DNA from: Psammoneis japonica
Taxonomy: Eukaryota
Length of the DNA: 64,000 bases
Assembly (NCBI GenBank): GCA_008632985.1
Contig: QPGO01000092.1
Coordinates: 124,001-188,000, forward strand
Direction: 5' to 3'
The notes beneath the pieces were generated by a model. It did not search any database. It had not been told where the DNA came from and saw only the letters and a program-made list of their open reading frames with translations. The translations under genes and the position numbers were made by a program. Positions 1 to 52,539 of this stretch are shown here, in pieces (position 1 is the stretch's first letter; each line of letters begins with the position of its first letter).

Positions 1-517
1 CAACAGACAATGGCATTGTTGCCATGAAGCCCAAACTGATCCTGTGAGAACAACAACATCACCATGAAACTGCCACACAGTTTTTCACCATGCTGGCAGC
101 TCCCAAAAGTCTGCCCTTTTGAAATGCAGCTTCTGCACAATTTTTGCACTGGTGCATCTCATGAGCCATGGGCTTTTTTACATGATTTTGTGTGTGGAAT
201 TTGTGCAATGGAAATGACGCCAAACATCTCATGAGCCAGCAGCTTTTTTGGGATTTGTTGTGCACACAATGCACCAGATTCTTGCACGCAGATGTAAAGG
301 CAGAAGAGACAAACAAACATGCTGGGAGCTTCTGTGAGATTCTACGCAATTGGGCAGACTTTTGCAGTGAGCAGACTTTTGGGAGCTGCCAGCATGAGAT
401 CGCCTGCCCTTGTTTCCCGCAAAACTCATTGGTCAACAGCAATGCTGGTCATCAGAACGTTTGCGAACATGATTCAAATTTAACTTCATTTTGACAATGC
501 ATTGTGCTTGATGTTTG

Positions 518-1818
518 TCAATGAACACCACCTTGTTTGCTTTGCCACTTTGCAAAGCTCATCAATGAACACCACTTCACTTCTTTGCCGTTGGCCTTTC
601 TGCATTGTTGACGATGTGCTCTGCTCCCTTGCCAGATCAGTGTGGCATCTCGACTGTCCTTGCTTTCTTCTCCATCTTCTTTGTCATCATTCTGCCTTTC
701 CTTTTCCATGTTTTCTTCCTCACTGTCCTTGTCTTTGCCAGAAAGCTCTGTCATTGCTTGTGTTTGCATCTCCAACTCTGCTGGTTTTCTCTTTGTTTTT
801 GCTCCCTTGCCCTTTCCATCACTCAGCCTCTTTTTTCCTTTGCTGCACCATGTGTTGAACTGCTCACCTGGGTGACTTGCATGCCCTGTCTTCCTTCACC
901 TCTGCAAGCAGGTCATTGAATCTTTTGGTTCCTTCATCCTTCCAAGAGTCATGCTGTCATGCTGAGTCTGTGCATGGGGGCACCGGCTTCACATCCTTCT
1001 CCTCTTCTTCATTTCCTTCTTGAATGTTCCCATCCTTCATGGCCTTGTGCTCCCAAATCTTCCAGCAGTTTTCCATCTTCAACAGTCCCAGAGCCTTGTT
1101 GCTTGCCAAAGTCAGCTCTGAAGCCTTGGCGTTTCCTGACTCCACCATCTTTCTCCACACTGCAGTGCTCTGTGTGAACTTTAGAACCTTGTCACAGAAC
1201 CATGTGCATGCTTCCTTGTTCACCCGCTTTTCACTCACAATGGTCTCCACTGTCTCTTCTTCCCAAGTTGCCAGGAATGGTTCTTCAGTTAATGCAGCTT
1301 GCTTCTTGTTCTTCTTTTTGTTCTGGTGTTTTCTTGCAGCTTTCTTTTGTTGCTTGCAGATTCCCTTGGCTTCCTGTTCTGTCAATGCCGCTGCAGTGAA
1401 TGAGCATTTCGACAGCTGCGCTGCAGCCAACACCTCCTTTTCCATGATCCCCGCAGCACTCACCTCTTGTTGCACTCTTCGTCATTGTCCAGGTGACAGT
1501 GTTCCTCTTTGTGTTTGTTGCATTGAGGGTGCACTTTTTCACCCAGTCTTCCCACAATCCTGCACAGTCTCACTTGCTGAACCTGCTCTTGGCTGTGTTT
1601 TTCCATGTCAGCCATGACACCTTGCCTCCACTCACCAGGTCTGCCTTGACAAGGAATTTTGCCCTTGGGAACAGTTCTTTCCAAGCCACCTCCTCAACCT
1701 CTCTCTTCAGAGATTGGTGATCTCCAGCAGCTCCCACTCTCAACAATGCTGCTGCTGACCTTGGGCTGTTTGGCTGCTCTTCAGCAGCCCCCTCCTTCCT
1801 TTTCTTTTTCTTTGGCAT
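518..1818 (-). pseudogene. Decayed accessory ORF of the outer Plavaka-type element (homolog of 10251-11530)
   Basis: LFPRAKFL / RNTV / ACTWFCDKVL / ALGLLKMENCWKIW match LFPQVKFL / RNTV / ACKWFCDHIL / ALVPLAMENHWQVW of the inner copy. Putative 73-bp intron at 1391-1463 (GTGAGT...CAG). Several stop codons. Confidence 0.75.
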
Positions 1819-2339
1819 GACACAAATGTTGCAGACTGCAATCTGTTGTCAAAATGTGTGGCAGCAATCATGCACAGCTCATTCTGATGTGGATGATTGC
1901 CGTTGCAATGTGAGGAGATGCTCTTGCCAATGCTTGTGATCCTTCAACTGCTGCCACAAACAATGAAAACAACCAAAATTGGGGTTGTGCATGTTTTCCA
2001 ATTAATCTGTCATTGTTGGTGTCATTTGGTGTGTGCCCAGTGATCAAATTTCCTTTTCAAAAAATGTCAATTGCTGTTGTTTGATGTTTTTAAGTTGCAA
2101 ATTTGTCATTGAAACATGTGTCTGAAACACACCAAAGTGCATTTGTCAATGTTTGTGCCTGTGACAGTTCTTGAAATTGGAGTGAACTGACTTTTTTTTT
2201 TGCACCAATTTTGTGTCTTGTTTTCCAGCATTCACCCACTTTGCATGACCAAACCAAACCAGGTTGTGATTCTGCCTCAGCACCAACATGCAATGCAAAA
2301 CTTGCCCCAGCTGCAATGCAGACAATTTGCTGGGCAAGC

Positions 2340-4411
2340 AGGTTCTTGAGCAAGGGGCAGTTGCCTGGCCGTGTTGCAAATGATCCTTCATGTGCATGCT
2401 CAAACACTTTGACCACATTCCACAGTGCCGTTCCATCAGGCCCACTTGCAAATTGGCCAGCTCAATGCACAGAAAGAACACCACCCCACTTTTGCACCCC
2501 AGTGCTGTTGTGAAGGTTGTTGGTTGAAATTCTCTTTTGGGAATGTCCGCGCACCAGGCAGAGAATCAGAGGAGCAGCTGGATGTTTCTTGGTCATCCAA
2601 TGAATCATCTCCTCCCAGATTGAGGTGACCCCAATGTGGAGCATCTGTTGCCAATGTCTGACTGGGGCATGCTGCTGTTGAACAATGCTCTTTTGATGCA
2701 GTGTGGTCATCACCCTTCAACGACAACATTTCTCCACTTGTGCCATTGTGCGACAATGAGGAACACCGTTCCATGTCATTGGAGATGTGCAATGACATTG
2801 CTGGTTTCACAAAAAGACATCATAGAAGCACCTTCAAGCTTGGTGTGCAAATGCCTCATTGCAGTGAACCAACGGCCACTCTGTCTGAATCCTTTCCCGC
2901 TCCATTGTGCAAGATGATTCCTGTCAACCTTGAAAAACCGCAGAGCAGAGTGAGAAAATGGTGTCTGTCCCACTTGTTGGACACTTGCACTTGGGTGGAT
3001 CAAAGCAACCTTGTGGATCTTGCTGATCCTTTGAGAAAGCATGTGGCAAAGGGCAACAACAACAAATGTGTTTTGGCTGTCAAGTGGCACCAAAATGCAT
3101 GCCAGGCTGGAGTGACGGATCCTCAAAAACAGCTCCTGGGATGTTTGACAGTTTGCATGGACAAGACAGGCAAAACAGCTTCCATGGGATCTTCTTGCAG
3201 AGAGACAGTCACAGTCACCTTGGCACATGTCGCCTTCAAAGAATGGCACAACAAGGCACAGTGGCAAGTGCTTGGGCACATTCCCAACTTGGAGAAACTG
3301 CCCATGCAAGTCGGAGAAGGGCCAAAGCCTCCGTGACTGCCACAAGGTGTTGAAGACAATGCTTCAGTCGCTGATTGACATTGTGGACCATGGTGGATTC
3401 AGGTGTCATGTGAGAAGGGGCAACAAGATCCAAAGCCTTCATGTGATCCTCACCACAATCCTGGTCAATGGGGATGCAAAAAGCGGTGACTGCCTGGTTG
3501 GCCGCTGTGGAGCAAAGAATTGTTGCCAGCGGTGTTCTGGGTTTTGCACGGTGGGGCAAAATGACCCAGCAATCCTTGGAAGGATTGCAAGCTTGTCCAT
3601 GCTGGAGACCTGTTGCTCATTTGGGGCAAGGCCAATGACTGTGCTCTCAATGACAAAGAGAGGATCCACTGGGCAGGAACAACAACTGCGCTGCATGAAG
3701 CATCACAACGTTTCTGCCAACTGCTTGCTTCATGCTGACTTCAGAGAGCAACCGTTGGGGCAACCCTTTCCACTGCTGGCAACATGATGCACCTGTTTGA
3801 AAACAGAGCTCTAAAAAGAGAGATTGGTGTTTTTGTAGACAGCATGGCCAATTGTGTGAAAAGCAAGGTCAATCAAATTGTGGAAAAAATGTTCAGCAGC
3901 CACAGACCCACTTGCAAATCTGTGTTTTTGTGCACCAATTTCAAAGGAGGTGCAACCTCACTTGCCTTCCTCAACTCCCACCACTGAATGGGCATGGCCT
4001 TTGTCTTTCATCTGTTGCTTCTGACAAAGGAGGGTAAAAATGTCACCCCCTCAGATGCACTGTGCACCAGTGCACCAAGCTTCTCAAAGATTTGCTTGCG
4101 TTCCATGCATGGTGCAAATTGGGAAAACCACCAGGAGGCAGAAACAATCTAAACAAGATCAGCAAGAAGATTTGGTTGCTCACATCATGCATGGTCCATT
4201 TCTCCCCCCAGGCATGAAGGAGCTGGGTGAAAGGTGCAAAAGCTGCACAAACTGCTTCACCTGCCAACATTCCTGCATTTTTTCTGCCATGCCATGAACT
4301 TTGATGATGGGCTGGGGATTTTTTCAAACTCCCATCGGCAACAGCACAACAATGCAGCTTTTCAGTGTTTCTCAGCCAGGCTGCATCACACATGGAAGAC
4401 CAAATGACGGC
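2340..4411 (+). pseudogene. Outer Plavaka-type transposase, N-terminal part (frameshifted, interrupted by insertion)
   Basis: Motifs MDKTG, LGHIPNLEK, GDAKSGDCLVGRCG, MMHLFEN, TNFKGGATSLAFLNSHH, QKLHKLLHLP, AMNFD and HMEDQM are colinear with 6523-9798. Start is approximate. Confidence 0.85.
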
Positions 4412-4671
4412 GCATCAGAGTGAACGACATCGCAACGTCTGCACACATGACAAAAATGTGTTGCCACATTGTAAAACCCACTCATCTGCATATGATGGTT
4501 TTTGTCATTTAGCCGATTGTCAATCTCCTGCTGTTCTTCATGTTTGAACACAGGTGCTTTTTAATTTTTGTGCTCAGCCTTTTTCACAACTGCTGACAAT
4601 CTTTAACAACAAGCCAAACATTGCAATTGCATGCAATGAAATTTTCATCATGTAAAGTGTGCGCTGATCAT

Positions 4672-5259
4672 TCAATCAATGACTGTGCTCCAATTGGCCT
4701 GTTCGTCCGCATCATCCTCTTCATTCCATGTGTCTTGTCCGCTCTCTTGCAAGATTTCAAATGTGTGTGCCGCTGCCGCATTGGATGTTTCCTCGTCACC
4801 GTTCCAAAAAAGCCACACTGCATTTCTTGCATTTGGGTGAACATCATCGAGCGGAAGAGGTCCCTCGAAGTGCAGAATCGCATCGCTGCTCCCCTCTTGA
4901 TGTCGTGTCATCTGCTTCTTTTTCTCTTTCTTCATTTTTCCCGTCCCATTTTTCTCTTCCTTCTTTGTCTTGGCGCTGCCTGTTTTCACCGTCTCCGGCG
5001 TCTTTCCATCCAAATCCTTCTTTTTCATCGATCCCGTCACCGTCGCCTTCATGGTGTGTCACTTTGTTTTGGATCCATGTTTCTGACTTCTCTCTGTGCT
5101 GTCCCCATTTCCAAATGTTTCTTTGTGATTGTTTGCATGCGTCACTTGAAGGCACCCACGTGTTCTTCACGTGCCTTAACGCGCATGCAGCAATCCATGT
5201 TGTTTTCCAGCACATGCACCCTTTCTCCTGATGCTGTTCTGCACAACATTTTCTTCCAT
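4672..5259 (-). pseudogene. Inner element ORF1, Lys-rich, unknown function
   Basis: 126-aa open segment 4672-5052 (basic region then acidic tail, no Tyr). The upstream part is broken or spliced. Divergent from ORF2. Confidence 0.4.
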
Positions 5260-5313
5260 CAATTCTGCACTCCGCACTGCCCTTTCCCGGCACAATCTCA
5301 TGCAGGATTTCTC

Positions 5314-5394
5314 TGGGAGAAGTCACATGCGCGTCTGGCAGGTTTTTGTGTGTGAAACTCCAAATCCCACCAGGCGCGCATGTGACTTCTCCCA
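5314..5394. repeat. 25-bp inverted repeat with 31-bp spacer between divergent ORFs
   Basis: TGGGAGAAGTCACATGCGCGTCTGG (5314-5338) versus CCAGGCGCGCATGTGACTTCTCCCA (5370-5394): 24/25 reverse-complement match. Confidence 0.9.
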
Positions 5395-5510
5395 CGCACC
5401 ACTCTGGCATGTTTCCATGGAAACCAGAATTTTGTGACTGACGCACGACCAATCTGGTGAATGCAATGGCGGACCCACGACCACAACAATCAGAGCATTA
5501 GAAGAAAACC

Positions 5511-6500
5511 ATGTCAGATGAACTCCGTCCATCCGCTGCTGAGGATTTCCGTCGCCGGATGATGGAGACAGTTGATGGTTTTGTTCACGCTGACGCTGCT
5601 CGTTGTTCAGAGGAACAGAGAGCAAAGGATGCAAAGGCTGCTGTGTCAAGATCGGTGGAAGCAATGGCAGAAGCCCGTTGTGCCGTTGTGGCTGCAATGA
5701 CCGCACTTGACAGTGCTTTGTTAAATCCAGCAACAACCACTCGCGAATTTAAGCACATCTGTGCGCAGGTGATTAAGTCATCGATCGAGACACACTGTTC
5801 AGACAACAACTGTGTTGTTGCAGTGGAAAATTGCAGCAAAGTGGAAATGAGTTTCCAATGCTTTCTTCACGGTGACGCATTTGACGCAAACGAATTGGGG
5901 CTCCCAATCTCCGTTGCGGGACATCAAAAATCAGAATTGAGGCTGCACATGCTGCACAGCTGTGACTCGACGTTGCTTCTGAGAAGCCTCAGGGCAAATT
6001 CTGACACAGACGCCAACAGAGCAGTGGAGAGGGAGCAATCTGCGATCAACAGCATCAACAAATCCATCCACCGCCGTGCCGTGCCACTCCTTCGAAGGCG
6101 ACATCTAACACAGCCGCTGCACATCCTGAAGGCTGCAATCACGTTGCTCCACGGGGCCCTCGACGATTTGAGAAGGAAAGACGTTGCCTTGCAGCAACAG
6201 TGGCAAGCTTTGTGTGATCTGTGGCCAGGCACAGATCAAATGCGGGGAGGGACATGGACCGCGATCTGGGCCATGGACGAAGAAGCCGTGGCAAGAGAAA
6301 GGGTCCTGCAGCTGGCATTGCAAATCGAGGCACAACTGGTGGCTGTCAACCAGCCTGACCACAGCGCCAACTTTCAGCAGGCGATTGTGGCTGCCAGGGA
6401 ACATTTCATGGTGCAGGATGACCAAATGGACCGTGCAAGTGGACACTGCATAGAATCTGTGAGGAAGCAATTGCTCCAAAAATGCACACACTGTGAGTGA
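5511..6500 (+). CDS. Inner element ORF2, 329 aa, helical-looking, unknown function, hypermutated
   Basis: Uninterrupted ATG-started ORF with no Tyr in 329 aa. Converges on the transposase stop with a 22-bp gap. Confidence 0.6.
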   Translation: MSDELRPSAAEDFRRRMMETVDGFVHADAARCSEEQRAKDAKAAVSRSVEAMAEARCAVVAAMTALDSALLNPATTTREFKHICAQVIKSSIETHCSDNNCVVAVENCSKVEMSFQCFLHGDAFDANELGLPISVAGHQKSELRLHMLHSCDSTLLLRSLRANSDTDANRAVEREQSAINSINKSIHRRAVPLLRRRHLTQPLHILKAAITLLHGALDDLRRKDVALQQQWQALCDLWPGTDQMRGGTWTAIWAMDEEAVARERVLQLALQIEAQLVAVNQPDHSANFQQAIVAAREHFMVQDDQMDRASGHCIESVRKQLLQKCTHCE

Positions 6501-6522
6501 ATGACAGATTGATGCGCACATC

Positions 6523-9500
6523 CTATTTTAGAAACAAATCTGACCAACACTTCCTTCTGTCCTGTGCAGCCCAAACAAATGGGGCCTTTTCTTGCGCTTC
6601 TGCCACTCCTGGACATTCTTCATGAACCAAAACATTGTCCCCAATTGCTTCGACAGGGACAACACGTAACTCAGGTGAGCACTGAGTCTTCTCAGGCGTT
6701 GAAAGCCAGTTGTTTTGTTTGTGATCAAGCTGCCAGCGACCAACCAAGTCTGTGTGCTGATGCCGTTGCCTCACAGTTCTCTGGTCAGCTTGACAAGCAG
6801 TTGGATGGACAACTGCAAAAATCGATCCTGTGCACTCCTGTTCAAAGAAACACAGCAAACGGGAGGGAAACTGTTGATCGCCCTTTCGTGTGCCAAAGGT
6901 CACACAGGCAAAGTCATGCCATGGTCCTTCGCTTTTGAAATCGGGGTGCGCACGGCACGTGTCCCTCCTGCTTGCATTGCAAAACTCTGTCTTGCAAGTC
7001 AGGTGTGCATTTTCACTGTCTTCACCAACACAATCCTCCCACTTTTCCAACATGAAGTTTGGCAACACAGGACGAACTTGGCAATGAGCATGCTTGCTGT
7101 TCCACTCAAACGTCACAGCGCCAATCCCTCGGTTGTAGGTGAGAGTGAATGTGCTTCCTCCCAGCGTGTGATTGTCCGTCCTGACTCTTGATGATTCCTT
7201 TTTCCCAGTTGGCAAAATCCAACTGTCAGCTGAAATTGCGGCGTTGAGCCTCATTTGGTCCTCCATGCGCGACACGACCTGCTTCAGAAAACTGTCGAGG
7301 TTGCGTTGTTGTGCGGCAGATGACGGCAGCTTGAAAAAGTCTTTCAAGAGACATTCCCCCAAGCCTGCGTCAAAGTTCATCGCATGTCGGCAACAACAAA
7401 GAAACACTGGGAGATGGAGTGTTTCATGAAGCTTTTGAAGCTTCCACCCACATCCTTCTGTTCACGGGATGAATTGCACCATCCGGTCTATGAGGAGACG
7501 GATTTTCTCGTTTATTTTCTGAACAGATGAGCCGGGAGTTGCACTTGTGATGGGTGGATTGCCCAGCCTGCACCATGCGTGGAAGACAAGAAGGTCCTCA
7601 AGCAATTGAGTGAATTGCCGGACGCTGCAGTTGAGTCTTTTTCCCTTGTGTTTTTTCTTTTTTTGGTTGTCGTCACCATCCTCAGCCTCACTCTCCTCTT
7701 TCTCATCCTCATTTTCGTCCCAGTCACCCTCTTTGGACTCCTTCGACCTTTCATCGTCAGAGTCATCCAAGTGCTCACTGGGTTGGCAGCAACTCTCAAA
7801 GTTTGCTTTGGGCATCTTGCGATTCTCTGGAACAATGGGTTCGTCTGCGTCCTCATCAAGGAAGCATGACTCACATGCGTTTCGTCCCTCGCTGGTCAAC
7901 AGGAGAAGGTAGAAAACAAAAGCCATTCCAGCCCAGTGGTGAGAGTTGAGGAAGGCAAGTGACGTTGCTCCTCCTTTGAAGTTTGTTCGCAAAAAGGATG
8001 CTTTGCAAGTTGACCGGTGATTGCTGAAAATCCTTTCCACCATGCTGTCCACCTCACTTGCGACCACAGGTGTCATGCTGTCTACAAATGAATTGATTGC
8101 CCTTTTCAAGGTGCCATTTTCAAAGAGATGCATCATGTCACTTGCTGTCGCAAGGGCAACACCGCATGGTTGTGCACCAAAGTCTGCCTCAAAAAGACAG
8201 TTGGCAGGTGCGTTGTGTTGCTTGAGGCAATGCAAGATGCCCAACCAGTGCTTCCTTTCTTGGTCTGATCTGTTGTCGTCGTTGGCCTCAGTTTGCACTT
8301 GGTGGAGATCCAGTCCTTGGACAAACTCGCATTCAATCCATGGGTCGTCCAGTTTGTTGAAGCCAGTTGGGCAAAAACGACAGCAACGTTGACGACAGTT
8401 GTGACCTCCGCATCGTCCGACGAGACAGTCGCCGCTTTTTGCATCTCCTGTGATGAGAACGATCAGTGGGATTGCGTGGAGGTGTCGCATCTCATCCCCT
8501 CGTCGCACGCATGTTTTCATGCCTCCTTTTCTCATGACTTCCAAAAGTGGCTCCAAAATGACACGCAAGCACGTGTGGCAGTCTCTTGACGAGCGTCCCT
8601 TCTCCGCCTTGCGATTGTTTGAGAGATTCTTTGCTGCAGATGACGACATCTTTTCCAAATCCGGGAGACAACCAAGAGGTTTCCAGACACTCTTGTCCGA
8701 CCATTTGTTGAAGGCAACATGCGCAGAGGTCATGATCACTGGTTCTCCGCAATGTGATCCCATCCCTTGTGTCCTGCCAGTCTTGTCGAGGTGAATGACA
8801 TTGCACTCAAGAAATTGTTTCTCTGGGTCAGTTGTCCATTCTTCGTAACTGCGCCTGCACCACTCACCCACCAAAAGGCACTTGTCATCTGGTCCCTTCG
8901 CTTTGCACTTCCCAAAAGGATTGTCTGGATCGGCCACATTCTCTCTGCTGCACCACAGGTGAGGATCGAGTGAAAACTGTTCCCAAACCTTTGTGAAATC
9001 CCATCTTGGCACTGACACTCGTTTTGGCAAACCGGTTTTGAAATTTTTGGTTTCTAGAGTGACAGGAATAGACTCGCTGGGTGGAAGAGGGAAATGCTTG
9101 GTTAAGGTGTGCATCAACTCTTTTCTCCTTGGCAGAACTGTGCCAAGCTCAATGTTGCTGTTGCCAGTGTGCCTCTCAATGAAATCAACAATGCAGTCGC
9201 ACAATTCCAGGGGAGCACCACGTGTGTCCATGAGCTTCTTGCACAACTCTGCGCAAGCTCCGTCAAGATTTGTCAAAGAGGGAGTAGAAGCCAAGGCCTC
9301 TTCTGCAGGAGCGTCACACCTGCTCCCCAAACGTTGATCCTCATCGTCAATGTCCTCTTCCTCCTCCATTGTCACGTCCAACACTGCAGCAAAGGATTGA
9401 CCACCGCCAACATCCAAATCGTTCATTGCCAAAAGCTCAACTCCTTGCATGCTGTGGTTTGATGAAATGGAGGACATGTCGTCCATTCTGTGCGGCGCGT

Positions 9501-9798
9501 CATCCGGGGAGGGGAGCAAGGGGCTGCTGCTCGGATCACTCGTTGAAGATCTTGGGAATCTGCCACGAGTTGATCGCCTGGGACAGGATTCATCATCATC
9601 AGAGGACAAAAAGGAAGAACCGCCGCTTTCTTCAGGTGGCCCCTCTGTTGTGGCAGGAATGTCACTTTGATCTGGGATCAGATCTTGGGTTTGCAACTCT
9701 TGGGCAACTGAGCAACACGTCGGTGAGCATCTCCAATGGCAGGCTGTTCGCAAAAAACTTTGGCCACAACCGGGACAGAGAAGAGGGTTTCCGTCCAT
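6523..9798 (-). pseudogene. Plavaka-type transposase, about 1090 codons, one in-frame TGA at 7462-7464
   Basis: ORFs 7462-9798 and 6523-7407 are in one frame (FIP*TEGCGWKLQKLHETLHLP; TGA probably from CGA). N-terminal CxxC...H...C finger, HLDKTG, GEPVIMT, GDAKSGD, CRFC, DMMHLFENG, NFDAG.GE, RAHPDF...PWHD. Family recognised from motifs only, no search run. Confidence 0.8.
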
Positions 9799-10250
9799 TG
9801 TAAATCAGACAACATTGACAGGGCCTTCATCAAGACTCATGCTCGTCGTCCTTGTCTTGTGGATGAGAAGGGAAAAAAAGAACAACACGCAAAAAATGGC
9901 AGGAAATTGGCAAACATTACATTGTCTTCCAGATTGGGATGATTCTTGTGGGCATGACGCATCTGCATTTTGATTTTTTATCTGGCATCCACAGTGAACA
10001 TTGCACTTTTTATTTGCCATCAAAATGCAGGATGTTGTCTCCATTGAAACGCAATGACAGCCAAGTCAAAAAGCAAGTTGGGCCATTCGTTGTTGCACAC
10101 AAATGTGTTTTCAAATTTCAGTGTTGCTGACAACAATTCGTGCAATGTCACAGAGAAAAATGGAGTGCCTGGCTGTCTCAACACGACCCAAACGACGGTT
10201 GCACTGTCAAACAGTGCCACTCCTCTCATTGTTGCCGTGAAAAGATCAAG

Positions 10251-11530
10251 ATGTCGTCTCCAGCACAACCGGCAAAGAAGCGAAAGAAAAATGAGACTGC
10301 CAAGCCAATGAGCCCGAGACTTCAGGCAGTGTTGAAGAGAACAGGTGTGCAGGCAGCACATGGTGCATTGAAATCAGAAGCAGAGAAGGTGGCTAGAAAT
10401 GATCTCTTTCCACAGGTGAAGTTTCTGAGTCCATCTGAATTGGCAAGCAATGGGAGCGTCTCAATGTTTGTCAAGAAACAGATTGCTGGTGGCAACATGG
10501 ACACTTCAAATTGGTCAGGAGCTTGGGAGAAATGGGCAAAAAAGGCGGCAAAAAGGCAAATTGACAATTGCAGAAATACGGTGTGTTTGGCTGTTGGGGC
10601 GGAGGCAATGGCACGCAAGTCAAGTGACCAATGTGTGTGATTCGAGAGTTGCGCGCATCTCACAAGAAGATGATGGCGATGCTTTGTCCACATGGGCATT
10701 GTCACTGAGGAAGAGGGAAAGGAAAAAGAAAAGAAACTCAAGGCATCAGACAGGAGGAAAAAGAGGAAAAAGTCAAGCCGTGACAAGAATGAAGAGAATG
10801 ACATCCCGTTTGTGCCGACATGGGATCCGTTCAGCCTGGGCACTGTCACCGGCGGCAAACGAAGGAACAAGCAGGCATGCAAGTGGTTCTGTGATCACAT
10901 CCTGCCTCAAACCAAGCAAAAGCAGGCATGGAGTGGTGCCATCAAAACTGGGAATGCACAGGTCTCACAGTTGCCCACGGTCGGTGATGAAGCTTTGGTG
11001 CCATTGGCCATGGAGAATCATTGGCAGGTGTGGGCATGCAGGAACAAGGAGGAGGCGGTGGAAGAATTGGGTGAGGAAATGGAGCCCAAAGAAACAAGGC
11101 CTGCCCCTCGGCACACGAAGCCAAAGAAACAATGAGTGTCTTGGGGAGACAACGGAATCAATTGGTTCAACGATTTGTGCAAAGAGGTGATGAAAGACAG
11201 AGACTCCAAGGAGGGCAAGGAGTTTGAAAAGTGACATGCAGAGATCAAGAAAAGCGAGTGCGAGAAGTCCGGAGAAGCAAAAAAGAAGAAAAAGAAAGCA
11301 CCGGCTGGTGACACGGACAAGGTGAAGGCAATGAACAGCCTGATGGTGGAGAGCAGCAGGGACGACAACAGTGACAACGATGAGCAGGAGGAAGGCGCAA
11401 AAGGAAAAACGGACGACGGAGGAGACAAGTCCGATGGAGACGAGTCTGATGATGATCGTTGGCTTGGTTTGAGAGAGTTGCAGCAAGAAAATGTGCGCAC
11501 AGTTTGCACAGCACTCGGTCATTGCACTGC
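10251..11530 (+). pseudogene. Inner element ORF4 (accessory), with an inferred destroyed intron at 10615-10695
   Basis: MSSPAQPAKKRKK...LFPQVKFL...EALVPLAMENHW...WGDNGINWFNDLCKEV, with internal TGA stops. Homologous to 518-1818 and divergent from the transposase in both elements. End is approximate. Confidence 0.75.
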
Positions 11531-11847
11531 AGACGCAACAAGGGATTGACTTGACCGATGAAATGCTTTTCTCGTTTAAAATGATGTTTGCGAAAATCAA
11601 CAAACCAAGGATTGTGTGGAAAAGCAATCATGCATTGGCATGTGGCAACAAGGTGGAGGCAGACACAGCGATGTGGACACAGTGAAAAACAGCACACACA
11701 ATTCTTAACAAGTTGTTGCAATGTTGGCACAGCAAACTTGCAACCAGAGGTTGGCCTTTCATTGCATGACAACAATGTTTTGCAACATTTTGATGAATTG
11801 TCATCATGCAAATCTACACATTTTTAACATTTCATGCACTCTGATGC

Positions 11848-12587
11848 GCGCCAAGAGCCATCTTGGCTGACCCACAGACTTTATCTAAGTTGGAAAAAAG
11901 AGACATTCCACGTGAGATGGCACAACACAGACTTGGCAGGAGCACTTTTACATTTCAGTGCAGTGATGCAAACAAGGCAGTTTCCTTCCTTTGGCCAGGG
12001 AAGCAAAAACATTGTCAGGTTCACCCTGTCTTGTTGAAATTTGCAGGGAAAAAACGGAGGGACCATGTTGGCAACACAGAGACTTTCTCCAACACACTTC
12101 TGTGCAAAACTGAGTGTTGCAACAAAAACGGAGTTGACACTTGCAGAGCATGTCCTGACTGCAACAGCAAAGGCCGATGCGCGACTGGGCAAATGTCAAC
12201 TTCGGGACTCACCACGGCAATTTGTTCTTCTCATTGTGGCTGCATTGTTTTTTTTTAAAACAAAAGTGATGGTGAGTTGTTTGCAATTGTCCACCCTTGC
12301 ATGCACCAGATGGACAAGCGTTTGATTGTGGAACACATGCAACACACCAACCTTCTTGTCAGTTGGTGGCAACTGGACCAAGTGAAAAACCATGATTTGT
12401 CCACGGGGCTGAGAAAGCCATGTGCTCTCCCAAAATGTTCTTGGTGCCCATCAACACCATTGGAGACAAGCTGCTGGCATGTGAAGAGCAGCTGGGAATT
12501 GTGGAGTCACACAAAGAAATGAAGCATGTGTGGGCAGTTCAAGACCAGAGAAAGACATGGGCAGACAAGTTTCACAACAGCGCATGA
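11848..12587 (+). pseudogene. Outer Plavaka-type transposase, C-terminal part
   Basis: HRLGRSTFTF, KHCQVHPVL, CKTECCN, DTCRACPD and VWAVQDQRKTWADKF match HTLGGSTFTL, AHCQVRPVL, CKTEFCN, DTCRAHPD and VWAAQDRRKCWSDLF of the inner copy. Confidence 0.85.
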
Positions 12588-13916
12588 ATGGAAATTTTGT
12601 TCATCTGTGATTGGAAACTGGAATGGCACTCAAAATGTCAGCGAAGGGGAAAGCAAGGCTGTTGCATTGAGACATGCTTCAGATTGTGTCACTCACCTGG
12701 TTTGATGAGTGGGATCTGCACACTGTGTTGACACTGTCTGCTGTTTCATCAAAAAATGGGACAGCTGTTTGCACACCTCCCAACCTGGTGTTCTTCTCTC
12801 AAAGGACAAGAATTTCATTGGCTTTGTTGGATCAATCAGTGGCAACTCCTTGACAAAAGTCAGGACTGCACTCCTGTCTGTCTTGGGACAAAATTCCCAG
12901 ATTTCTTGTTCTGTCACTCTCAAGCAATGCTCTTCCTGATTGGATGGTTTTCCAAGCCATTCTCCCCTCACCTGCTCTCCGATTTCATGGGAGGCCTGGC
13001 AAATTGCAGCTTCTGCAGTCGCCATTGCCTTGTTCACACCCAGGCAGGGCATGGGCAAAACTTTTGATGCAATCCAAGTTTTGGACCACTTGTGTCAGGG
13101 ACCACAGGTTGCAGGGGACAATGATGCAGCATCTCTGAAACTGTCGATGCAGCAGAGAAAACATCATCCCTTGCAGATTCTCATGGAAAAAGCATTCACC
13201 AAACATTGCACATTGCCACTCCCCTTTCTGCACCCAGCAATGATCCATGCCAATTTGAGTGAAGCCACTCAACACATTTTGTGAAATCCTTTGCAGAGAC
13301 GCTGCAATTCAAGTGGCGTGTTTTGCTGCCATCCGGCAAAGAAACTGCCCATGCCCCCCAACCAATGCACTGGAGAAGAGGTCCTTCACCACTGTGCTCC
13401 TGGCCTCATCTCTTTGCTGCTGAATGGAAACCACTGACTTGACACCACAGTCCAAACAAAGCTTGTCCAAAGAAAGCTCTCCTGCATTGAAAGGTCTTGT
13501 CATGCCAAGCCAAAGTGCATTCACACCACCATCCTCACCAGGGAAATTACAGCACGGGGGAGAAAACTCTGTGATCAGACAGCTCCATTTGTGCAATGTG
13601 AGCCTCATTTGAAATTTGAAGTGAGCAACCAAAACTTGCAAGAAAGTTGCACCCACAAAGTTGTAGTGTCAAAGTCATCCAGGCTTGAAAGAACTGGTGG
13701 CTCAACAACACTGTCAAGAGACGCGTTCCCCTCTTCATCATCAACAATTGACGATGCTTCAGACGGATCTAATTCTGACCTGATTTGGCTGTGACTGTGG
13801 CTTTGCCCTTGTCTGCTTTCTCCATGTTGACTGTCTCTTGCTCTTCATTTTCTACCATCAAGGGACAGTGGGCAGAGAAGTCAGAGGCAGAACATGCCAA
13901 CTTGGACACAGTGCTG

Positions 13917-14128
13917 TCTTCATCACTGGCAGACTCCTCCAACAATGAGTGCAATTTGTTGCCAGCTTCAAATCTGGCGGGAACGGAGGCAGATGTGTCA
14001 AAGGTGAAACACTGCTCTTTCTCAACCAACTCTGAAATGCACTCATCTTCATCACTGGCAGATTCCTCCAACAATGAGTGCAATTCGTTGTCAGCTGCAA
14101 GTCCGGCAGGAATGGAGGCAGACATGTC
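13917..14128. repeat. 83-bp direct repeat, two copies 129 bp apart
   Basis: TCTTCATCACTGGCAGA(C/T)TCCTCCAACAATGAGTGCAATT... at 13917-13999 and 14046-14128. Encodes N(E/K)LHSLLEESASDED twice on the minus strand. Confidence 0.9.
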
Positions 14129-15160
14129 CGAGTTGTGACCTTGCCCTTTCTCTGTGGCATCTGCAGTTGTGCACTCCTTGTGCAGGGTGAGATCAGAGTC
14201 AACACACTCCAACATTTGATGCTCATTGGTGCCATGGCCCTTGCAAAGATGCAACCAGACAGAGAGAAAGTGAAAAGGTCTTGACCAGAAAATGGACCGT
14301 GGAACATGTGATTGAACATGCCAGTGCAACGATTGCACTCAGATTCACACAGCTGGCGCTCCATTCCATTGCCACCAAGATCTCCAGTCCTGGTCTCTGA
14401 TGTCATGCAATCATGCATGAGAGGCCATTCTTCCAGCTTTGCATGCTTCAGTTGTTGCTCAGCTCTGGAATTGAAAACTGGACACACCATGTTGTTGAGA
14501 CAAGGATGGTCCTTCACTGCAATGCCAGCAAGTGCCAGACATTGCAACACTGACATGAGACAAATTTCATTAAAATCAGCACCCCGTTTGGCCCAAACAT
14601 GGCAAGCATCCTTGCACCATTGCTCCACAAGATTTGCACAGAACTCATCTTTGTCCACATTGTTGTTCATCCAAAGCAGCATTGCATGAATTTTGTCCAC
14701 CACATTGCATCTGCCAGGTCATTGGCTTTTTTGATGCAGTTGGGGTCCATGAAGACCTCAGAGAACTTGCTGTGCATCAAGTTGGCAGGGCTGATCTGCC
14801 CAACCTGTGGGTTGCCAAACAACACACCAAACTCATCCATCATGAATTGATGGAAGAGAACAAATGGATCTTTGCCTGCACAGCAAAGGTTGGGCAAGTG
14901 CTTGTCCCCGACATGGCAGAATTGGTGGCAGCAAGTGGGACAACCCACCAGAGTTGCAAGACAAATGACCCATTTTGGGTCAGGCCCAGATCTGCAAATG
15001 ACATTCTTGAACTGGCAAAGCATGGTGGCTGGAGCTGACAAGTGAAAGTCTCCAAGAGGGAAGGAAGGGAATTTCAAATGGTCCATGTGCACGTTGGGAA
15101 GTCCAGTGTCACCACCTCCGCCTGTCACAACATCATCCCACAGCCTGCTGTCATCATCCA

Positions 15161-15180
15161 GAGAGAGAGAGAGAGAGAGA
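15161..15180. repeat. (GA)10 microsatellite
   Basis: Directly visible in the sequence. Confidence 0.95.
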
Positions 15181-18100
15181 TGCTTGAACATCTTTGCAGA
15201 CAGTGCAAAGTCAGGATGGGAGTGATCATCATGCTGCAGGTCAAAGTCTTGAAGTGGCTGGGAAGTCTGGCACAGCTCAATTGCGGTGCATCTGAGTCAG
15301 CATTGGCTTCATGCTGCACTTGTCATCACAGCAGTGACCAATGGCAGTTCTGCTGTTGCTGACTGCCTTGAATGACCAAATGTCACTGAGTGCATCCATG
15401 ATGAAGAAACAACTGGCAGCAGTCTTCCTGTGGCTGTTGACACCAGGTGCAGCTGTTGCTGTCATGATGTCCCTCACAAAATTGACCGGGAGAGATGCAC
15501 AGTCCCTGCATTGTGACATCCTTGCATTGGAAGCAGAGGCAACCAACTCTTCACCCAAGACTTTCAAACACTCCTTGTGCTGAAGGGACCAGTTGGAGGG
15601 TGGGGGGACTCAGTTTTCTGAGCTCCACCTCATTTTTGCAAAGCTGAATTGAGTTGAGAACATCCGCAACCCCATGGCCTTCATCTTGGCAGAAACATGT
15701 TTGTTGAAGTTGTCATTGGGCTCAAATGCATCAAGACTGTGTGTGGCAATGGGCTCAGCTGACTTGACAGATCCAGGCTCCCTCAGATGACACTTCCGTC
15801 CAGCACAGCCAAACTTGATCCTTCTTCAGTGTCCAGCAAACTCAACAGCAACAGATCCATCATGCTTGAGATTGGACTTGCCCTTCAACAAAATGAAAAG
15901 CAAAAGGGTGGGGATGCAGACACAAAGACCACCAAAGTGAGCTTGGTGCAATGCACTGGCTTGTCTGGCAACCAACACTTCCTCAGAGCAGCAACCCAGC
16001 TGAGGTGGGCAATCAACGCAGACCCTGGAGCCTGCGGTGGGATTGCTCAAGGAGCTTTTGTTGGAAAACTTGTGCCAGTTTTGTCTGAAGTTGTCTGTGA
16101 GGTAAAAGTCAGTGGCGGAGTGGTGCAGCACACACTCAATGTTGGTTGCATTGTCAATGATGTGCAGGTGTGAGACATGGGCAAACACTTCCTCTGTGGC
16201 AACAGCACGACACTTGGACGGGTCAAAGCATTGATGCATTGTTGACTTGTCCAGCCATGACATGTCATCGAGGTCTGTTGGAGGAGAGGCAAGATCAAGC
16301 CATTTGCAGAAACATCAGCATGGGTCATGCATCCTTTTGAGGGAGACCCTGGGGAGGGAGAAGAGGGTTTGGCCAGAGCCGTGGTTTCCAACAAGGTGGG
16401 GATGTTGGCGGCAAGGGTGCGGTGCACCCCCCTGGATGACGACACATTCCCGGATGCCAAAGGAGCTGCTGGGTGGGAGCAAGAAACAGTCGTGACCTTC
16501 TTTCGACGGACAGTCAAAGAAGGCTCTTGTGGAGAAAATAAAGTCAACAAGGAAAAAGACACATGAGACAACGATGACACATGACAGCAGTGCAGGTGCA
16601 GGGATGTGCTCACTGGCATCATGCAAGCAGGTCCCATCTTTGCGTGTCCTTCTTCTAATTTTACGTCCAGTTTTAGATTTGTTTTCTTGCTTGTGATCAT
16701 CTTCCAAGCAGCTGGCCCTCTGACCACGCATTCTGCAACAAAGCATTGTGAGCTGCTTGGAGCACCAGGGTCATGTGCTGGGTTGCTCTTCAGGACAGTG
16801 CTTCCTGAATTCACATTGCAACATGGCATCAATTTTGGCTTTGCAAGCCCATTGATGGGCAGCAGCATCACCTTCCACAATTGCCAAGTCCTCAATGTCA
16901 CAAAGATTGTTTCCAAGAAACCCCTTGACTTTGTCCTCCTCAGAACCTGCTGCACTCGACTTGCATGTGACAAGAAATCTGTTGGCAAATGTGCGCCACT
17001 CTTTTTGAGTGTTGACCTGACAAAAGATCTGCATGAACCAACAGCTGGTGTCCTTGGGCTTGTGCTGGACACAGTGCATGACCATTTTGGTGACAAAGCA
17101 TGCACCATGAAGGTCATGTGCTTGGTCATCAATCAATTCTTGGAGACTTTTGCACTTAAAAAAAATGGAAACAAGGCTCGCCAGTGACAGGATCATTGAG
17201 GTCATCGCTGGCAATGACATGGTGCACAAACTTGACCATTGCCTTTGTGTTGTGGCAAAGGTCACAATGTTGCTCCTCTTCTTTTTTGTCTCTCCAGGCA
17301 ATGTGGAGAAAAAGAGAGCATCCTCCAAATTTTGATGTCAAAGAATGCAGCTGCCTTTTTTCTTTCGGGGGATTTCTTTGTCAACCAACCACGAGTCATG
17401 ACATGGGACCAGATGCCAGGATGTCTGAGAGATTGCCTCACAATGTTGTTGGCGCAGATGAAATGATCTGTGTCATCAAAATCAACATCATCAGGAAATT
17501 GGAATGAGGGATTGGGGTTGACCTTGTCTGCGGATGGGGCAAAGTCATTGGAACGGCACACGCACAGGTCAATTTGATTTCGAGGAGAGGGTGTGCTGTT
17601 GTGAAATGTGCAGAAAATTGCGCATGTGGAAAAAATGCTAAAAACACAGCAGGCAACCATGCACAGAAATTCTGAAAGAGGTCAGAAAAAATGGGGGAAG
17701 TGCGTGATGACTTGGGCATGGATGACATGCCAGCAAGTGCAGTGATGCACACAGTGGGTGGAGAAAATAAAAACCACGTTCAAATGCAAAGCATGAAAAG
17801 AAAAGAGATTTCATTGTCACAAGTCATGGGGAACTTTGCAAAGGCAATTGATTGAGTGTCAAACTCATTTGATGAAAACAACGTCAATTGAATTCTCTGA
17901 CAATGCTCCTCACGAAACTTGCACTTCAAATGCGCTGTGAAAAATTCTTTCACATGTGATGTTTGAGTTGAAAAGAACAACAAAAATGCTGTTCAATGTC
18001 ACAAATGTTGACAATGAAAGCAAAAACTGCAATGTTGCAGCCTCTGATGTGGCTTGCAGGGAGATCCATGTTGCGTTTGTTGACCCAGCAGGTTGTGGCC

Positions 18101-21100
18101 TTGTGCTGCACTGCATTTTTCTGTGTTGTGAGCCCATTTTGACTTGCCTGGCTTTTGTGATCTGACAGAGCCTGTGCCAAGTTTCCACTCCTGCAAGGAT
18201 CATTTTCACAAAACCATGACATTTTTTGGCTGCAGGACATTGCTGGCAGCCTTCCTTGAGCTGTGGGAACAACTTTCTGGGCACCTTCACAGTGGTGACT
18301 TGCAAGGGAGGAAAGAGTGCCATTGGTGCAATCATCAAGATCCAAGCTGTGCTTTTCAGGCACACCCTCATCTGCCAGCAGAGAGGCCACAAAGTGTGCC
18401 TGAGCGGCATTTGCAGCACCTCAACTTCTCTTGTCTGGACCCATCTTTTGACAATGAATCAGCCCAAGGATTGTGCTCCTGAGCTGTCATTGCAGAGGTG
18501 CTGTGTTCTCCAAAACCTCCCCTTCTCACCAGAAATGAGAGACCCACAATGTCCCATCTGTTTTGTGTCACTTTACAAAAAGTTCCCAACTCCAAGGGTG
18601 GAGCAACAACTCTGCTTCTTGTCTGCCATGACAGCCAGATGCTCTGAGCCACAAGGATCAACTTGCTCCCAAGGCTTCTTGTCAGCAAGAAACAACCACT
18701 GTGCTGTTTGATGCAGTGTGCAGCATGTGCTTCAACCACCCTCTTGGCATGCAACACAGCTGTGCAGATCCACTTTTCTGTCAAAGCACACATCTCCTCA
18801 CCTCCAGCAGCTCTGCCTGCCATTGTGGCTTGGCTGGCTGTTGTCACAAATCTTGTTGATGCCCTGAAACACAACTCTGCAGCATCGAAGTTGCCCCCAA
18901 CACCTCTGTGACTCTTCAACCACTGAGACACCATCAGCATCCCCAACATCCAAGAAGTGTCTGCTCAACCCACATGCACTGCTCTCCATCCACAAATGTT
19001 TTGATCACAAGGTTGTGGGCAAAGCAACAATTTTTCTGAGTTTGTCTGCTCTGTTTGATGCCAGCAACATCATTGCTTGGATGGGACAGTTCACACCACA
19101 TGCTCAACTTGCCAGTGGATCTCTTTTTGCAACAAATCCAGCCCCAACACACTGGACCACCCCATCTGCAAAATGCACACTGTGCTCCTTCTGCTCCTCT
19201 GTTCTTGTGGTCTCTTTGATGCCTCATTTGCTGTCCCTCATGCTTCTGCCCAGGCTCTTTAACTGCTTGCTTGGTTTGAAAGCTTTGTGCTCCACAAACC
19301 AAGCTCATGTCATCATTGTTCACCACGCGGCACTTGCCAGTTGTTAGCCTCAACTTCCAGCAGCATGCCATGGTGGCAGATGGGATTTGCTGTTGGCGGC
19401 AACAACCCTTGAGATGATCTGGCAGCTTGCAGCAATTTGGGCAAAATTGAGCAAAAATTCAAAAATGATGTTTGTCAAAATGTCAATTCACCTGCACAAA
19501 TGTCAACTGGATGTCTGCAGAGAGACACCACAGTTTGCGTTTGTTGGCACACAGCCTCTGATGACAACAGCAATGGAGATGTGCTTTTGTCCCAGGTGAG
19601 AAATGCACGCATGGAGAGGCCGGGCATTGTGCCCACTTTTCTTTTCTTTCATCATTGTGCATTTTGTGTGAACAAATCTGATGGATTTCCTCCAATTTTC
19701 TTGTGTGGCTGCTTTCTCCAGATCTGGCTGCTTTGAAGTATCAGCCATTGCTCTCTTTGCCTGGAGGGCATGGACAACAAACGGAAAGTTTTCATTTGGG
19801 GGCAACCGCCCCATTTTGGCTGGCACAAGAAAATGGCGGGAAGAAGCTGCACACAATGGCTGCTTTTGCTGCAGCTTTGAGCCTGTTTTTCTCTTTCTTC
19901 CATTGCGCACCTGAAAGTTTTCACAACCAATGCCCACCATGCCAAAAAAAGCAGTGCTCTGGCCAGCTCCATTGTTTTCATGAGAGAAAAGCTGGGGGGT
20001 CTGACTTTGCATGTGTGCTTTTTTGCAAAGTCTTGGCCATCTCAAAGACCAAAGATCAGCAAATTTGCAAACCTGTGTGGGAGCCTCTGCTGAAGCCACA
20101 ACATCAACAAAGTTTGGCAGCTGTGGAGCAATCAAGTGATTTGAAAGGCAGGGGCAGAGGCAACAGCAAAACAAACTGTTGACAAAATTTTGGCTCTGGA
20201 GTGACAACAAGTTGTGACTTGGAACAAAAGAGGCAGAACAAAGCATCTCTGTGTGGCACTTGGATGTTGCTGTCATCATCACCCTGCTTTGTTGTGGTGT
20301 TGAGCACACTGTTGTTTTTGCACCCAGGCTTCTCTCAGCTGCCATTGTGTGCCCTCAAATCTGGGCAGCACCGCTCTTTTGTCCGTGCCAAAATCTCCAG
20401 TGTGTGTGTGTGCTTGTGAGACCTGCCATCAAATCAAAGGTGCTGTCCACAGCAACTTAAGGTGCAGACATGACAGAGTGCAAAGAACATGCCAGTGTGT
20501 CCAAAAACACATGTTGTCATTTCCATCTTGCAAAACAAGAGTTGACTGTCATGCAGCTGGAGAAACAGAAACAGCAGCAGCGCAGCACCATTTTTTCCAT
20601 GTGCACAGCTTGTGGCTCAAGAGAAACCTTGCAACTTGTCCAAAAGGGGTGAAAGCACATCTTCTGGAGACAGCAAGGAGCCCCCTCAGCTCAAAAAGTT
20701 TTGCACAAAAACCACATGGCTTGGCAGCCATGGAAAGTCTGGAGAGAGCAGCTGCCACTTTTGAAGATGGCACACTCTGCCATGTCACAACCCTGGATGT
20801 CATGGCAAAAGAATGGCAAAGCCAGAGAGGTCACCAAAATGACAGAAATGACAAAAAAGCTGGCATGTGTTGCTTCGAGCTGTGCTTTGTTGCTGGGCAC
20901 AAGCAAGCACACCTCATTTTGATATGAAAAAGTTTCTCTCAGAGCAGCATCGTCAAATGGGCCATGTCGCTGGATTGTTCTTCTCACATTGTGCCACAGT
21001 GAGTTGCTGTGAAATTGCTCTCCAAATGCACCTCCACAAACCTCTGACAAATGGCCGTCTGCACTTGCTTTGCAAGGCTGAAGTTGAGCCCTTCGATCCA

Positions 21101-21798
21101 GCCGCGCTGTCGGCTCTGCCTGTGTGTTTTGTCATCAACAGCATGCCAAGAAGATGAGCCTGTTCTTGTCAACATGTGCAGCCTTTGAACACAACACCAG
21201 ATCCAGTCAGGAGCAAATGTGGCTTTCCCTCATGCTTTCAATGTGGGCTCAATTTTGTGACACGAATGCAACCCAGCCCTCACTGGCACGTGCGTGCGCG
21301 GCATTGGTGTGGTGGCTTTTCGAAATTTCATCATCTGCAGCTGGCGGATTTCTCCTGTGTCCGTTGGATCGTCGACAGGTAGGCGGCGCGGGTGAAGCTG
21401 ACGCACTCTCACATTATTGGTTTCCCTAAGTAATTTCATGTGTTTGATGTCCAACAGCTGGCAGTTTGTTATCCTCAGTATTCGTTACTGTTTGTTGTCA
21501 TGAAACCAATGTTTAGAATTCCCAAAACGGGGTGTGAATTCTCAACGGCAGATGGACAACGCAAAAATTCTGCGATTGGCGAATTCGGAGTATGCTGATC
21601 AAAATCGTGTAGAATTGTACGCAGTTATCATACGGAGGTTTCGTGTGTCATCAGATTGACTCACCGAACAAATCCACTTCTGGAAGTATTTTTTCGATGA
21701 TCCAATCTGCATTCATTCATTCATCGCGTTGTTGTGCGACCAACATTAGTTGGCCATTCTTCGTTGAAAGTGATATATGAAGGAAGAAGCATAAGGCC

Positions 21799-49990: not shown

Positions 49991-50345
49991 GTGATTATTT
50001 ATCTTTTGCAGATGGCAGCTGCTGTGTCACTTGAAATGGACCTGTGTATTGTGGTTCTTTTTTTGCAATCGCGGCAACAAAGATTGATTGCAGGGCGCTT
50101 CCAAGCGCAAACAACAGCAGTCTATGTCGATTGTTCAGACGCATCTCAAGTCTATGGGTAGGGAGAAAAATATCCAAGTACTCCGTGTCTTGGAAGGATA
50201 AGAAGGCAGGTGCAGGGCTTGGAAGAAGACATCCTAGTTATATTGCAGAGGCATCAATCCCTTGCTAGTTTGATTTTAAGGTGAAGAAAGGCTCTTGGAA
50301 CGAATTGAGAACGTTAAATTTGTTAAAAGGTGCAAACTTTGCGTA

Positions 50346-52530: not shown

Positions 52531-52539
52531 TTAAAAACC

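Follow-up and report, generated by a model that had tools for sequence, protein, structure and literature searches.

How does a transposase come to lose nearly all of its tyrosines, and why do two related copies of it carry Cys in one and His in the other at the same sites? This question is raised by a 64,000-nucleotide stretch of the genome of the diatom (stramenopile) Psammoneis japonica (assembly GCA_008632985.1, contig QPGO01000092.1, positions 124,001-188,000 of the forward strand), hereafter called the window, in which a Plavaka-like DNA transposon (the inner element) lies within an older relative (the outer copy). We consider it likely that a region-restricted process of A:T-to-G:C transitions at TpA stripped both nested copies and the surrounding repeat-like blocks of this diatom genome, and that the decay of CpG visible on the same DNA is a separate matter.

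Ancestry of the Cys and His residues

The inner transposase lies on a minus-strand frame of 1,094 codons (9804..6523) with a TGA at codon 781 and a TAG at its end. A phmmer search of 1.84 billion representatives yielded 909 relatives at E <= 1e-3. Homologs of 1,130-1,280 aa are colinear with 9330..6532, across the TGA, and the alignments of P0001, P0009 and P0011 span this stop (9330..6532 and 8226..6526); the 780-codon and 312-codon frames therefore constitute one transposase, and we rejected the shorter of them as a separate gene. As the stop column holds Arg in eight of nine distant homologs and likewise in P0011, the TGA represents a CGA-to-TGA transition at CpG. The window protein matches the Pfam signature Plavaka (PF18759) with 21.1 bits (E = 2e-4), short of the gathering cutoff of 26.3, whereas 29 of the 36 relatives tested match it at E <= 1e-3, 25 of these above the cutoff, so that membership of the Plavaka group is established by transitive homology only.

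The frame harbours three Tyr codons, all TAC, among its 1,092 sense codons, in agreement with the initial annotation of this DNA, which had counted three in about 1090 codons. The Tyr content of 12 relatives ranges from 1.6 to 3.5% (2.6-3.5% in 11 of them), and approximately 30 Tyr residues would therefore be expected. The same annotation had rightly described a second, 329-aa open reading frame (ORF) as devoid of Tyr (ORF2 in Table 1).

For an ancestral-residue test, we aligned the read-through protein, with X at the stop, with 12 homologs from public proteins and scored the 520 columns showing at least 60% agreement among at least six distant homologs. This column-wise comparison was chosen over back-mutation and scoring with hidden Markov models because it is non-circular. 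In the 22 columns with a Tyr consensus, the inner copy has Cys in seven, Phe in four, His in three, Tyr in two, Lys in two, and Glu, Trp, Val and Arg in one each. Cys or His thus occupies 10 of 22 Tyr-consensus columns, compared with 22 of the 469 columns whose consensus is neither Tyr, Cys nor His (Fisher odds ratio 17, p = 1.2e-7). The 12 homologs, scored likewise as a control, keep Tyr at 50-92% of such columns and show Cys or His 0-2 times each. With respect to P0011, the closest Tyr-bearing relative (61% identity over 572 aa), 18 Tyr residues correspond in the window to 10 Cys, 3 His, 2 Tyr and 3 other residues (13 of 18 being Cys or His), and Tyr to Cys is the joint commonest substitution between the two proteins. 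At conserved columns other than Tyr, the window protein matches the consensus in 62% of cases and P0011 in 66%. These comparisons establish the direction of the change and bear out the route proposed earlier, from TAY codons to TGY (Cys) or CAY (His).

The initial annotation had listed six pairs of inner and outer peptides with Cys in one and His in the other, and all six are present at the implied places (Table 1). At the quoted columns, where Arg, Cys or His in the homologs would speak against Tyr ancestry, the homologs carry Tyr (9 of 10 at column 300, 10 of 10 at column 316, 10 of 10 at column 338, 6 of 10 at column 379 and 7 of 11 at column 432). The outer copy, which has no Tyr over 808 aligned codons, reads His, His, Cys, Cys, His, Cys, His, Cys, Cys, Cys and His at the Tyr-consensus columns. 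The choice between Cys and His differs between the two copies at columns 300, 316, 338, 379 and 432 and is the same at columns 409 and 745; given these opposite choices, both lineages were converted independently. One site with Tyr in the inner and Cys in the outer copy had been reported; it corresponds to column 320, and we found a further case at column 890. Cys and His residues are interleaved along both copies.

An Arg (CGY) ancestor, which had been mentioned as another possible source of such pairs and set aside, finds no support in the inner copy, where the 36 columns with an Arg consensus hold Arg 23 times, Cys once and His never. The dismissal does not extend to the outer copy, in which CpG-decayed Arg also feeds the Cys and His residues: opposite Arg of the inner copy, it has Cys six times, His five times, Gln five times and Trp twice, which are products of CGN decay.

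Among the 150 best representatives, three full-length Plavaka-like proteins of 1,127-1,290 aa (P0209, P0240 and P0236), possibly from the same organism, have one Tyr each and carry Cys or His where their relatives have Tyr. They share 25-29% identity with the window copy, a divergence indicating that other subfamilies were stripped too. Relative to P0247 (48% identity), P0240 has replaced 22 of 26 Tyr residues, by Cys in 11 cases and by His in 11. An apparent all-His outcome in P0240 at 8-10 deep columns, as if a single strand had been hit, dissolved in this comparison with a closer relative; P0236, apparently all-Cys at 8-10 deep columns, stays moderately Cys-biased.

TA deserts, their edges and their flank rule

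We delimited TA-poor blocks, hereafter called TA deserts, by a two-state segmentation of the window, along which the composition was also binned. The 27,390 desert bases have observed/expected (o/e) ratios of 0.05 for TA, 0.32 for CG, 1.74 for TG and 1.71 for CA, as opposed to 0.56, 1.01, 1.17 and 1.13, respectively, in the other 36,002 bases. The remaining 12 dinucleotides shift by 0.2 at most, and the GC content is unchanged (0.481 in the deserts and 0.475 in the rest). The summed density of lost TA and CG (0.0749) is close to that of gained TG and CA (0.0717). Each desert ends abruptly, within tens of bases, and the edges coincide with the ends of blocks, not with genes. Two blocks' worth of desert DNA is Plavaka-like transposon, the other ~15 kb are without a family match, and the host genes in between, including one of 1.4 kb separating deserts 2 and 3, are normal.

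The loss of Tyr in the transposase, the starting point of the initial annotation, is thus real, but Tyr itself is not the target, as TA was lost everywhere, whatever the codon phase and outside coding sequence too. The inner coding sequence has TA at codon positions 1-2, 2-3 and the codon boundary in 4, 7 and 3 cases, compared with 17, 18 and 42 in a 907-codon host ORF. At conserved positions, none of the 50 codons that still start with A follows a T-ending codon, as opposed to 3 of the 10 codons with an A-to-G replacement at the first position (p = 0.0035). In block 1, TAA, TAG and TGA number 36, 16 and 495, versus 160, 171 and 448 in genes; owing to the near absence of TAA and TAG, long ORFs are found in all six frames. 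As a compositional reference for intact relatives, we used 13 related loci from metagenomes. All 13 have TA o/e ratios of 0.50-0.66, and their coding sequences contain 25.8-40 TA per kb, versus 3.0-5.6 in the window copies. TA loss is not a trait of this transposon family.

The surviving TAs are not randomly distributed. TTAA is found 25 times in the deserts and 59 times in the slightly larger background, with corresponding figures of 1 and 85 for ATAT, 2 and 193 for ATAC, and 0 and 115 for GTAC. These counts are fitted by a multiplicative model in which each flank has its own survival factor (chi-square 5.0-6.5, 6 degrees of freedom), and this model outperforms uniform loss (likelihood-ratio chi-square 99-107, 3 degrees of freedom), whether the reference is host DNA or the set of 13 intact relatives. 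The factors amount to 0.72-0.77 for 5'-T/3'-A, 0.35-0.37 for 5'-C/3'-G, 0.13-0.14 for 5'-G/3'-C and 0.11-0.12 for 5'-A/3'-T, the -2 and +1 positions being indistinguishable because the TA site is palindromic. Purine-TA-pyrimidine sites are preferred, and TTAA is largely spared. TG and CA are equally frequent overall, and a runs test on five desert segments revealed no strand-coordinated runs of TG or CA (z = +0.4 to +1.8). Both strands were hit, without long single-strand tracts.

This pattern bears on the possibility of ADAR-like A-to-I hyperediting at the RNA level, subsequently fixed through an RNA intermediate. ADAR prefers a 3' G, and the flank preference in the deserts is for a pyrimidine over G on the 3' side of the adenine, or its mirror. 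Hyperediting of RNA would also have to account for a DNA transposon with candidate inverted-repeat ends, for the equal treatment of both strands in the absence of coordinated runs, and for DNA that does not look transcribed and is equally affected. Although both ADAR and the ADAT-type editing of fungal mRNAs typically prefer a 5' U, as described in the available text of two sources (bioRxiv 10.64898/2026.01.13.699255; PMC11156358), we regard this explanation as extremely improbable.

One public run containing the stretch (X1) served as a check at the contig level. In the single-copy desert, X1 contigs reproduce stretches of 601, 573, 4,076, 655, 1,696 and 2,057 bases with 0-1 mismatches, and the differences are mostly one-base homopolymer gaps or insertions. 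A base-calling artefact, in which a modification at TA (and 5-methylcytosine at CG) in silenced DNA is misread as TG or CA by long-read base-callers, would be in keeping with such homopolymer differences between the window and X1, which are typical of long-read assembly, with the strand symmetry of the TG/CA outcome and with a run whose library type is not on record. It is nevertheless very unlikely, as the contigs that reproduce these desert stretches of 0.6-4.1 kb have k-mer depths of ~55-66 and as the nearly Tyr-free P0209, P0240 and P0236 are found among public predicted proteins.

CpG decay, timing and rival readings

CpG decay constitutes a second layer of change. In the outer copy and elsewhere in desert 1 outside the inner element, the CpG o/e ratio is 0.04-0.47, with most bins at or below 0.35, compared with ~0.4-0.8 within it, and TA is equally low in both. 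The inner coding sequence has kept 123 CG and 14 TA. TA loss is therefore separable from CpG decay and far ahead of it in the inner element. In another host, one relative from the metagenomes (L013) has undergone CpG decay but kept its TA, with a CpG o/e ratio of 0.25, raised TG and CA, and a normal TA ratio of 0.52. CpG decay as the sole cause, with Arg (CGY) as the origin of the Cys/His pairs and an incidental shortage of Tyr, stands next to no chance of being correct. It accounts for the low CpG ratio of the deserts, for the CGA-to-TGA stop and for the outer-copy residues that face Arg, but it is refuted for the inner copy by the Tyr residues of homologs at the quoted columns and by the conservation of Arg at Arg columns, and the counts of CG and TA in the inner coding sequence and the composition of L013 argue against it as well. 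It is established that diatom transposons are methylated at CpG, in Phaeodactylum in a DNMT5a-dependent manner according to the available text of the source (PMC9998398), and the CpG component is therefore an ordinary one.

The summed depth of X1 contigs is 4,858-18,850 over the inner element, highest at its ends, and ~55-100 in most other bins; these sums, which are not copy numbers, are read as ~70-290 single-copy equivalents of the inner family, including non-autonomous members. A total of 5,112 X1 contigs are at least 90% alike. A joint between 6787 and 9815 with ATG in between, at a depth of 889, corresponds to a derivative that lacks almost the whole transposase. In 20 kb, 149 places vary at >=10% of the depth. 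Among the 35 of them that were typed, 19 have CA or TG in the window and CG in the family, and four have TG in the window and TA in the family, two of the latter being the second half of doublets with TG in the window and CA in the family (5172/5173 and 8971/8972). Had the copies been stripped independently, most of the ~250 ancestral TA sites would be polymorphic (with a model bias of at most ~86:14 per site), which indicates that the family consensus was TA-poor before multiplying. TA stripping of the inner family thus seems to predate its amplification, and CpG decay is a private, later layer in the individual copies. As judged from the sequence, the stripped element may be functional, since TA-to-TG/CA changes create no stop and its match to the consensus is close to that of P0011.

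Could TA instead have been lost gradually under selection, for example in escaping a host factor that recognises TA, with no burst of mutation? We consider such adaptive avoidance unlikely. The TA-poor state is indeed common to most contigs of the family, whose typed variable places are of the CpG type in 19 of 35 cases, and the frame is open save for its one CpG-derived stop; however, the dead, frameshifted and single-copy DNA of the outer copy and of the desert parts without a family match is depleted equally or more. Four of the 22 conserved Tyr residues were replaced conservatively by Phe and two were kept, but 10 gave way to Cys or His, not to Phe. The near-normal match to the consensus at other conserved columns would suit a protein under selection, whereas depletion in non-coding parts and in all three codon phases, and edges found at block ends and not at genes, would not.

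A region-restricted TpA process remains the likely explanation, and several points weigh against it. Most copies of the inner family have the same TG/CA outcomes; TA loss is not seen copy by copy, and its slow accumulation in an active, selected lineage of the inner family is conceivable. The surviving TAs could in part be new TG/CA-to-TA mutations instead of refractory sites. A mobile nature of the remaining desert DNA finds no support in Pfam, where, leaving aside both transposase frames, the 55 ORFs of the deserts have no credible family. Lastly, the evidence covers one 64-kb window and the contigs of one sample, and run X1, with no library type on record, is probably the assembly's own sample. 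Among the 55 ORFs, the only match, to DUF6851 (E = 0.0064, 17.3 bits for a cutoff of 27), was not retained as credible, and a 361-aa ORF (16050-17132, minus strand) has no homolog at E <= 1e-3.

The TpA process would hit only TpA, giving TpG or CpA according to the strand of the adenine hit, and it would come near to saturation in blocks and halt within tens of bases at their edges. Tyr would turn into Cys or His because every Tyr codon is TAY, and frames would stay open because TAA and TAG are destroyed too and no new stop can arise. A slower, ordinary decay of CpG to TpG or CpA in methylated transposon DNA would act on the same blocks and would have made the one in-frame stop. In the inner family, stripping would have come first and multiplication afterwards. 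By analogy with the proposal made for Bigelowiella natans, we infer that the agent may be a TadA/ADAT-type adenine deaminase of the host that acts on DNA and targets silenced foreign sequences; no recognisable deaminase gene is encoded in the 64-kb window. A wider scenario is possible, albeit rather doubtful, in which diatoms have a TA-directed DNA adenine-deamination defence that is shared with chlorarachniophytes and possibly old in the stramenopile, alveolate and rhizarian (SAR) group, and in which the stripped transposon survived because such a mutagen creates no stop codons, its essentially Tyr-free transposase stayed active and the element multiplied because the defence had lost its target in it.

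Features of the window and comparison with known systems

The pieces of the outer copy were located by tblastn (Table 1). The match to its protein breaks at ~4406 and resumes at ~11857-11920. As this break coincides exactly with a candidate inverted repeat of 21 nt (86% complementary, with the outer 13 nt perfect), the inner element is nested in an older relative; no clear target-site duplication was found at its ends. The outer and inner transposases share 37-50% protein identity. A divergently oriented upstream ORF is common to both copies, with 32-40% aa identity between the two, and a Pfam search with the second ORFs of the element revealed no family. Within the inner element, downstream of the transposase, we also found an inverted repeat of 38 nt with a 5-nt loop (5314-5394, 84% complementary).

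Table 1. Positions of the transposon parts, TA deserts and inner/outer peptide pairs in the window
Feature	Position	Strand	Remarks
Inner element, ~7.4 kb, nested in older copy	4410..11849		TA o/e ~0.03-0.18; CpG o/e ~0.4-0.8
Candidate left terminal inverted repeat of inner element	4410..4430		pairs with 11829-11849
Candidate right terminal inverted repeat of inner element	11829..11849		pairs with 4410-4430
Transposase N-terminal part, inner copy	7465..9798	-	778 codons from Met; 2 Tyr codons left; ORF, Plavaka-like, colinear homologs
In-frame stop TGA (codon 781) splitting the transposase	7462..7464	-	from CGA (Arg), CpG transition
Transposase C-terminal part, inner copy	6523..7461	-	312 codons and terminal TAG; 1 Tyr codon left
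ORF2 (329 aa)	5511..6500	+	0 Tyr; no outer-copy counterpart; no Pfam family; putative gene
Second ORF region of inner element, divergent orientation	10131..11135	+	two frames, 10131-10640 and 10674-11135; no Tyr
Outer copy, transposase part 1	2731..4409	+	frameshifted; no Tyr in aligned codons; CpG o/e 0.2-0.3
Outer copy, transposase part 2, beyond nested insertion	11850..12572	+	tblastn
Outer-copy counterpart of second ORF	978..1815	-	protein comparison
TA desert 1	1..21379		72 TA in 21.4 kb; both transposon copies and 8.8 kb of other DNA; open at window start
TA desert 2	47280..49995		10 TA in 2.7 kb; CpG o/e 0.04-0.24
TA desert 3	51444..54738		12 TA in 3.3 kb
Pair FGKCKAK / LRKHVAK	8916 / 3031	- / +	column 300
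Pair EWCRRSY / KWHQNAC	8865 / 3082	- / +	columns 316/320
Pair IHLDKTG / VCMDKTG	8796 / 3151	- / +	column 338
Pair LGCLPDL / LGHIPNL	8676 / 3271	- / +	column 379
Pair KTCVRRG / RCHVRRG	8517 / 3401	- / +	column 432
Pair PRHT / PPCT	11106 / 980	+ / -	accessory ORF

The genes flanking the deserts have long exons without interruption. The best named matches of a host SF3B3 ORF near the deserts are diatom proteins with 62-68% identity (Chaetoceros, Cylindrotheca, Nitzschia, Mayamaea, Cyclotella and Thalassiosira), its best unnamed match reaching 80%, and the host lineage is that of diatoms. Two paralogous host ORFs (57067-57921 and 62187-62960) with 71% nucleotide identity have normal TA, indicating that duplication at such divergence does not attract the process. 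To the right of desert 1, TA and CpG are normal from 21380 to a scaffold gap of 545 N at ~23488-24032.

Desert 2 is flanked by direct repeats that are 73% identical (46981-47147 and 49769-49929), the left one, outside the desert, having 11 TA and the right one a single TA, and it may thus be an element with terminal direct repeats. When the two are aligned (46960-47160 with 49748-49945), ~4 of ~9 TAs of the left copy face TG or CA, although at 73% identity this alignment is too loose for counting. A tandem duplication of 259 bp with 93% identity (47099-47356 and 47366-47624) is found at the left edge of the same desert. Desert 3 differs from the others in its strong strand asymmetry, TG and CA numbering 21 and 63 in 52001-52500, with a GC skew of -0.39 over 52001-53000.

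Defences that act by hypermutating cytosine, such as repeat-induced point mutation (RIP) and APOBEC, are well established, and the adenine/TpA counterpart has so far been represented by one preprint on one alga. If true, the saturated diatom case means that the process is not peculiar to one lineage. Its signature can be searched for elsewhere, in the form of TA deserts with an excess of TG and CA, frames open in six phases and Tyr-free proteins, and the flank rule is a constraint that any candidate enzyme must reproduce. Stripped elements escape profile searches, as illustrated here by a Plavaka match below the Pfam cutoff, and gene finders will call long spurious ORFs in TA deserts.

RIP consists of C-to-T changes mainly at CpA, which enrich TpA and create stop codons. 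The deserts resemble the outcome of fungal RIP in that region-restricted, dinucleotide-specific transitions disable repeated or mobile DNA and leave sharp compositional blocks. The polarity is opposite, as TpA is depleted here to an o/e ratio of 0.05, the GC content is unchanged, no stop can be created and frames stay open. The decay of CpG in diatom transposons carrying 5-methylcytosine accounts for the CG-to-TG/CA changes, the TGA stop and the outer-copy Arg changes, but it cannot remove TA, and the inner element has lost ~90% of its TA while keeping most of its CpG. ADAT2/ADAT3 (TadA-type) enzymes and ADAR likewise convert A to I, read as A-to-G, next to a 5' U or T; unlike what is seen here, their established substrates are RNA.

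The closest parallel comes from the chlorarachniophyte Bigelowiella natans. The available text of the preprint by Mettrop et al. (bioRxiv 10.64898/2026.01.13.699255) describes two viral regions integrated in the genome of this alga, in which A-to-G or T-to-C changes at TpA make up 230 of the 231 de novo mutations. It also reports that DDE transposase and reverse-transcriptase domains are overrepresented among the low-TpA coding sequences of the alga, and it proposes an ADAT2 homolog as the candidate deaminase. In both cases, the changes are exclusively A:T to G:C at TpA, giving TpG or CpA, and fall in discrete regions, which are of foreign origin in B. natans and in part of Plavaka-like transposon origin in the window. 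The hosts differ, a rhizarian there and a stramenopile here, as do the targets, namely integrated viral DNA and a Plavaka-like DNA transposon. The region of nucleocytoplasmic large DNA virus (NCLDV) origin has a Rho value of 0.45 in that text, whereas the deserts are nearly saturated, and CpG and diatoms are not mentioned in it, whereas CpG decay is present on the same blocks here. De novo mutations were measured in B. natans, and the process described here was traced by comparing sequences. Our full-text literature searches turned up no account of diatom transposons losing TpA, and the signature was found only in the available part of this 2026 preprint. The window thus provides a second host lineage for a TpA hypermutation described only in 2026, and what it adds is this host lineage, the saturation, an amplified TA-free family that shares the stripped state, and the flank rule derived here for diatom deserts, whereby purine-TA-pyrimidine is hit and TTAA is spared.

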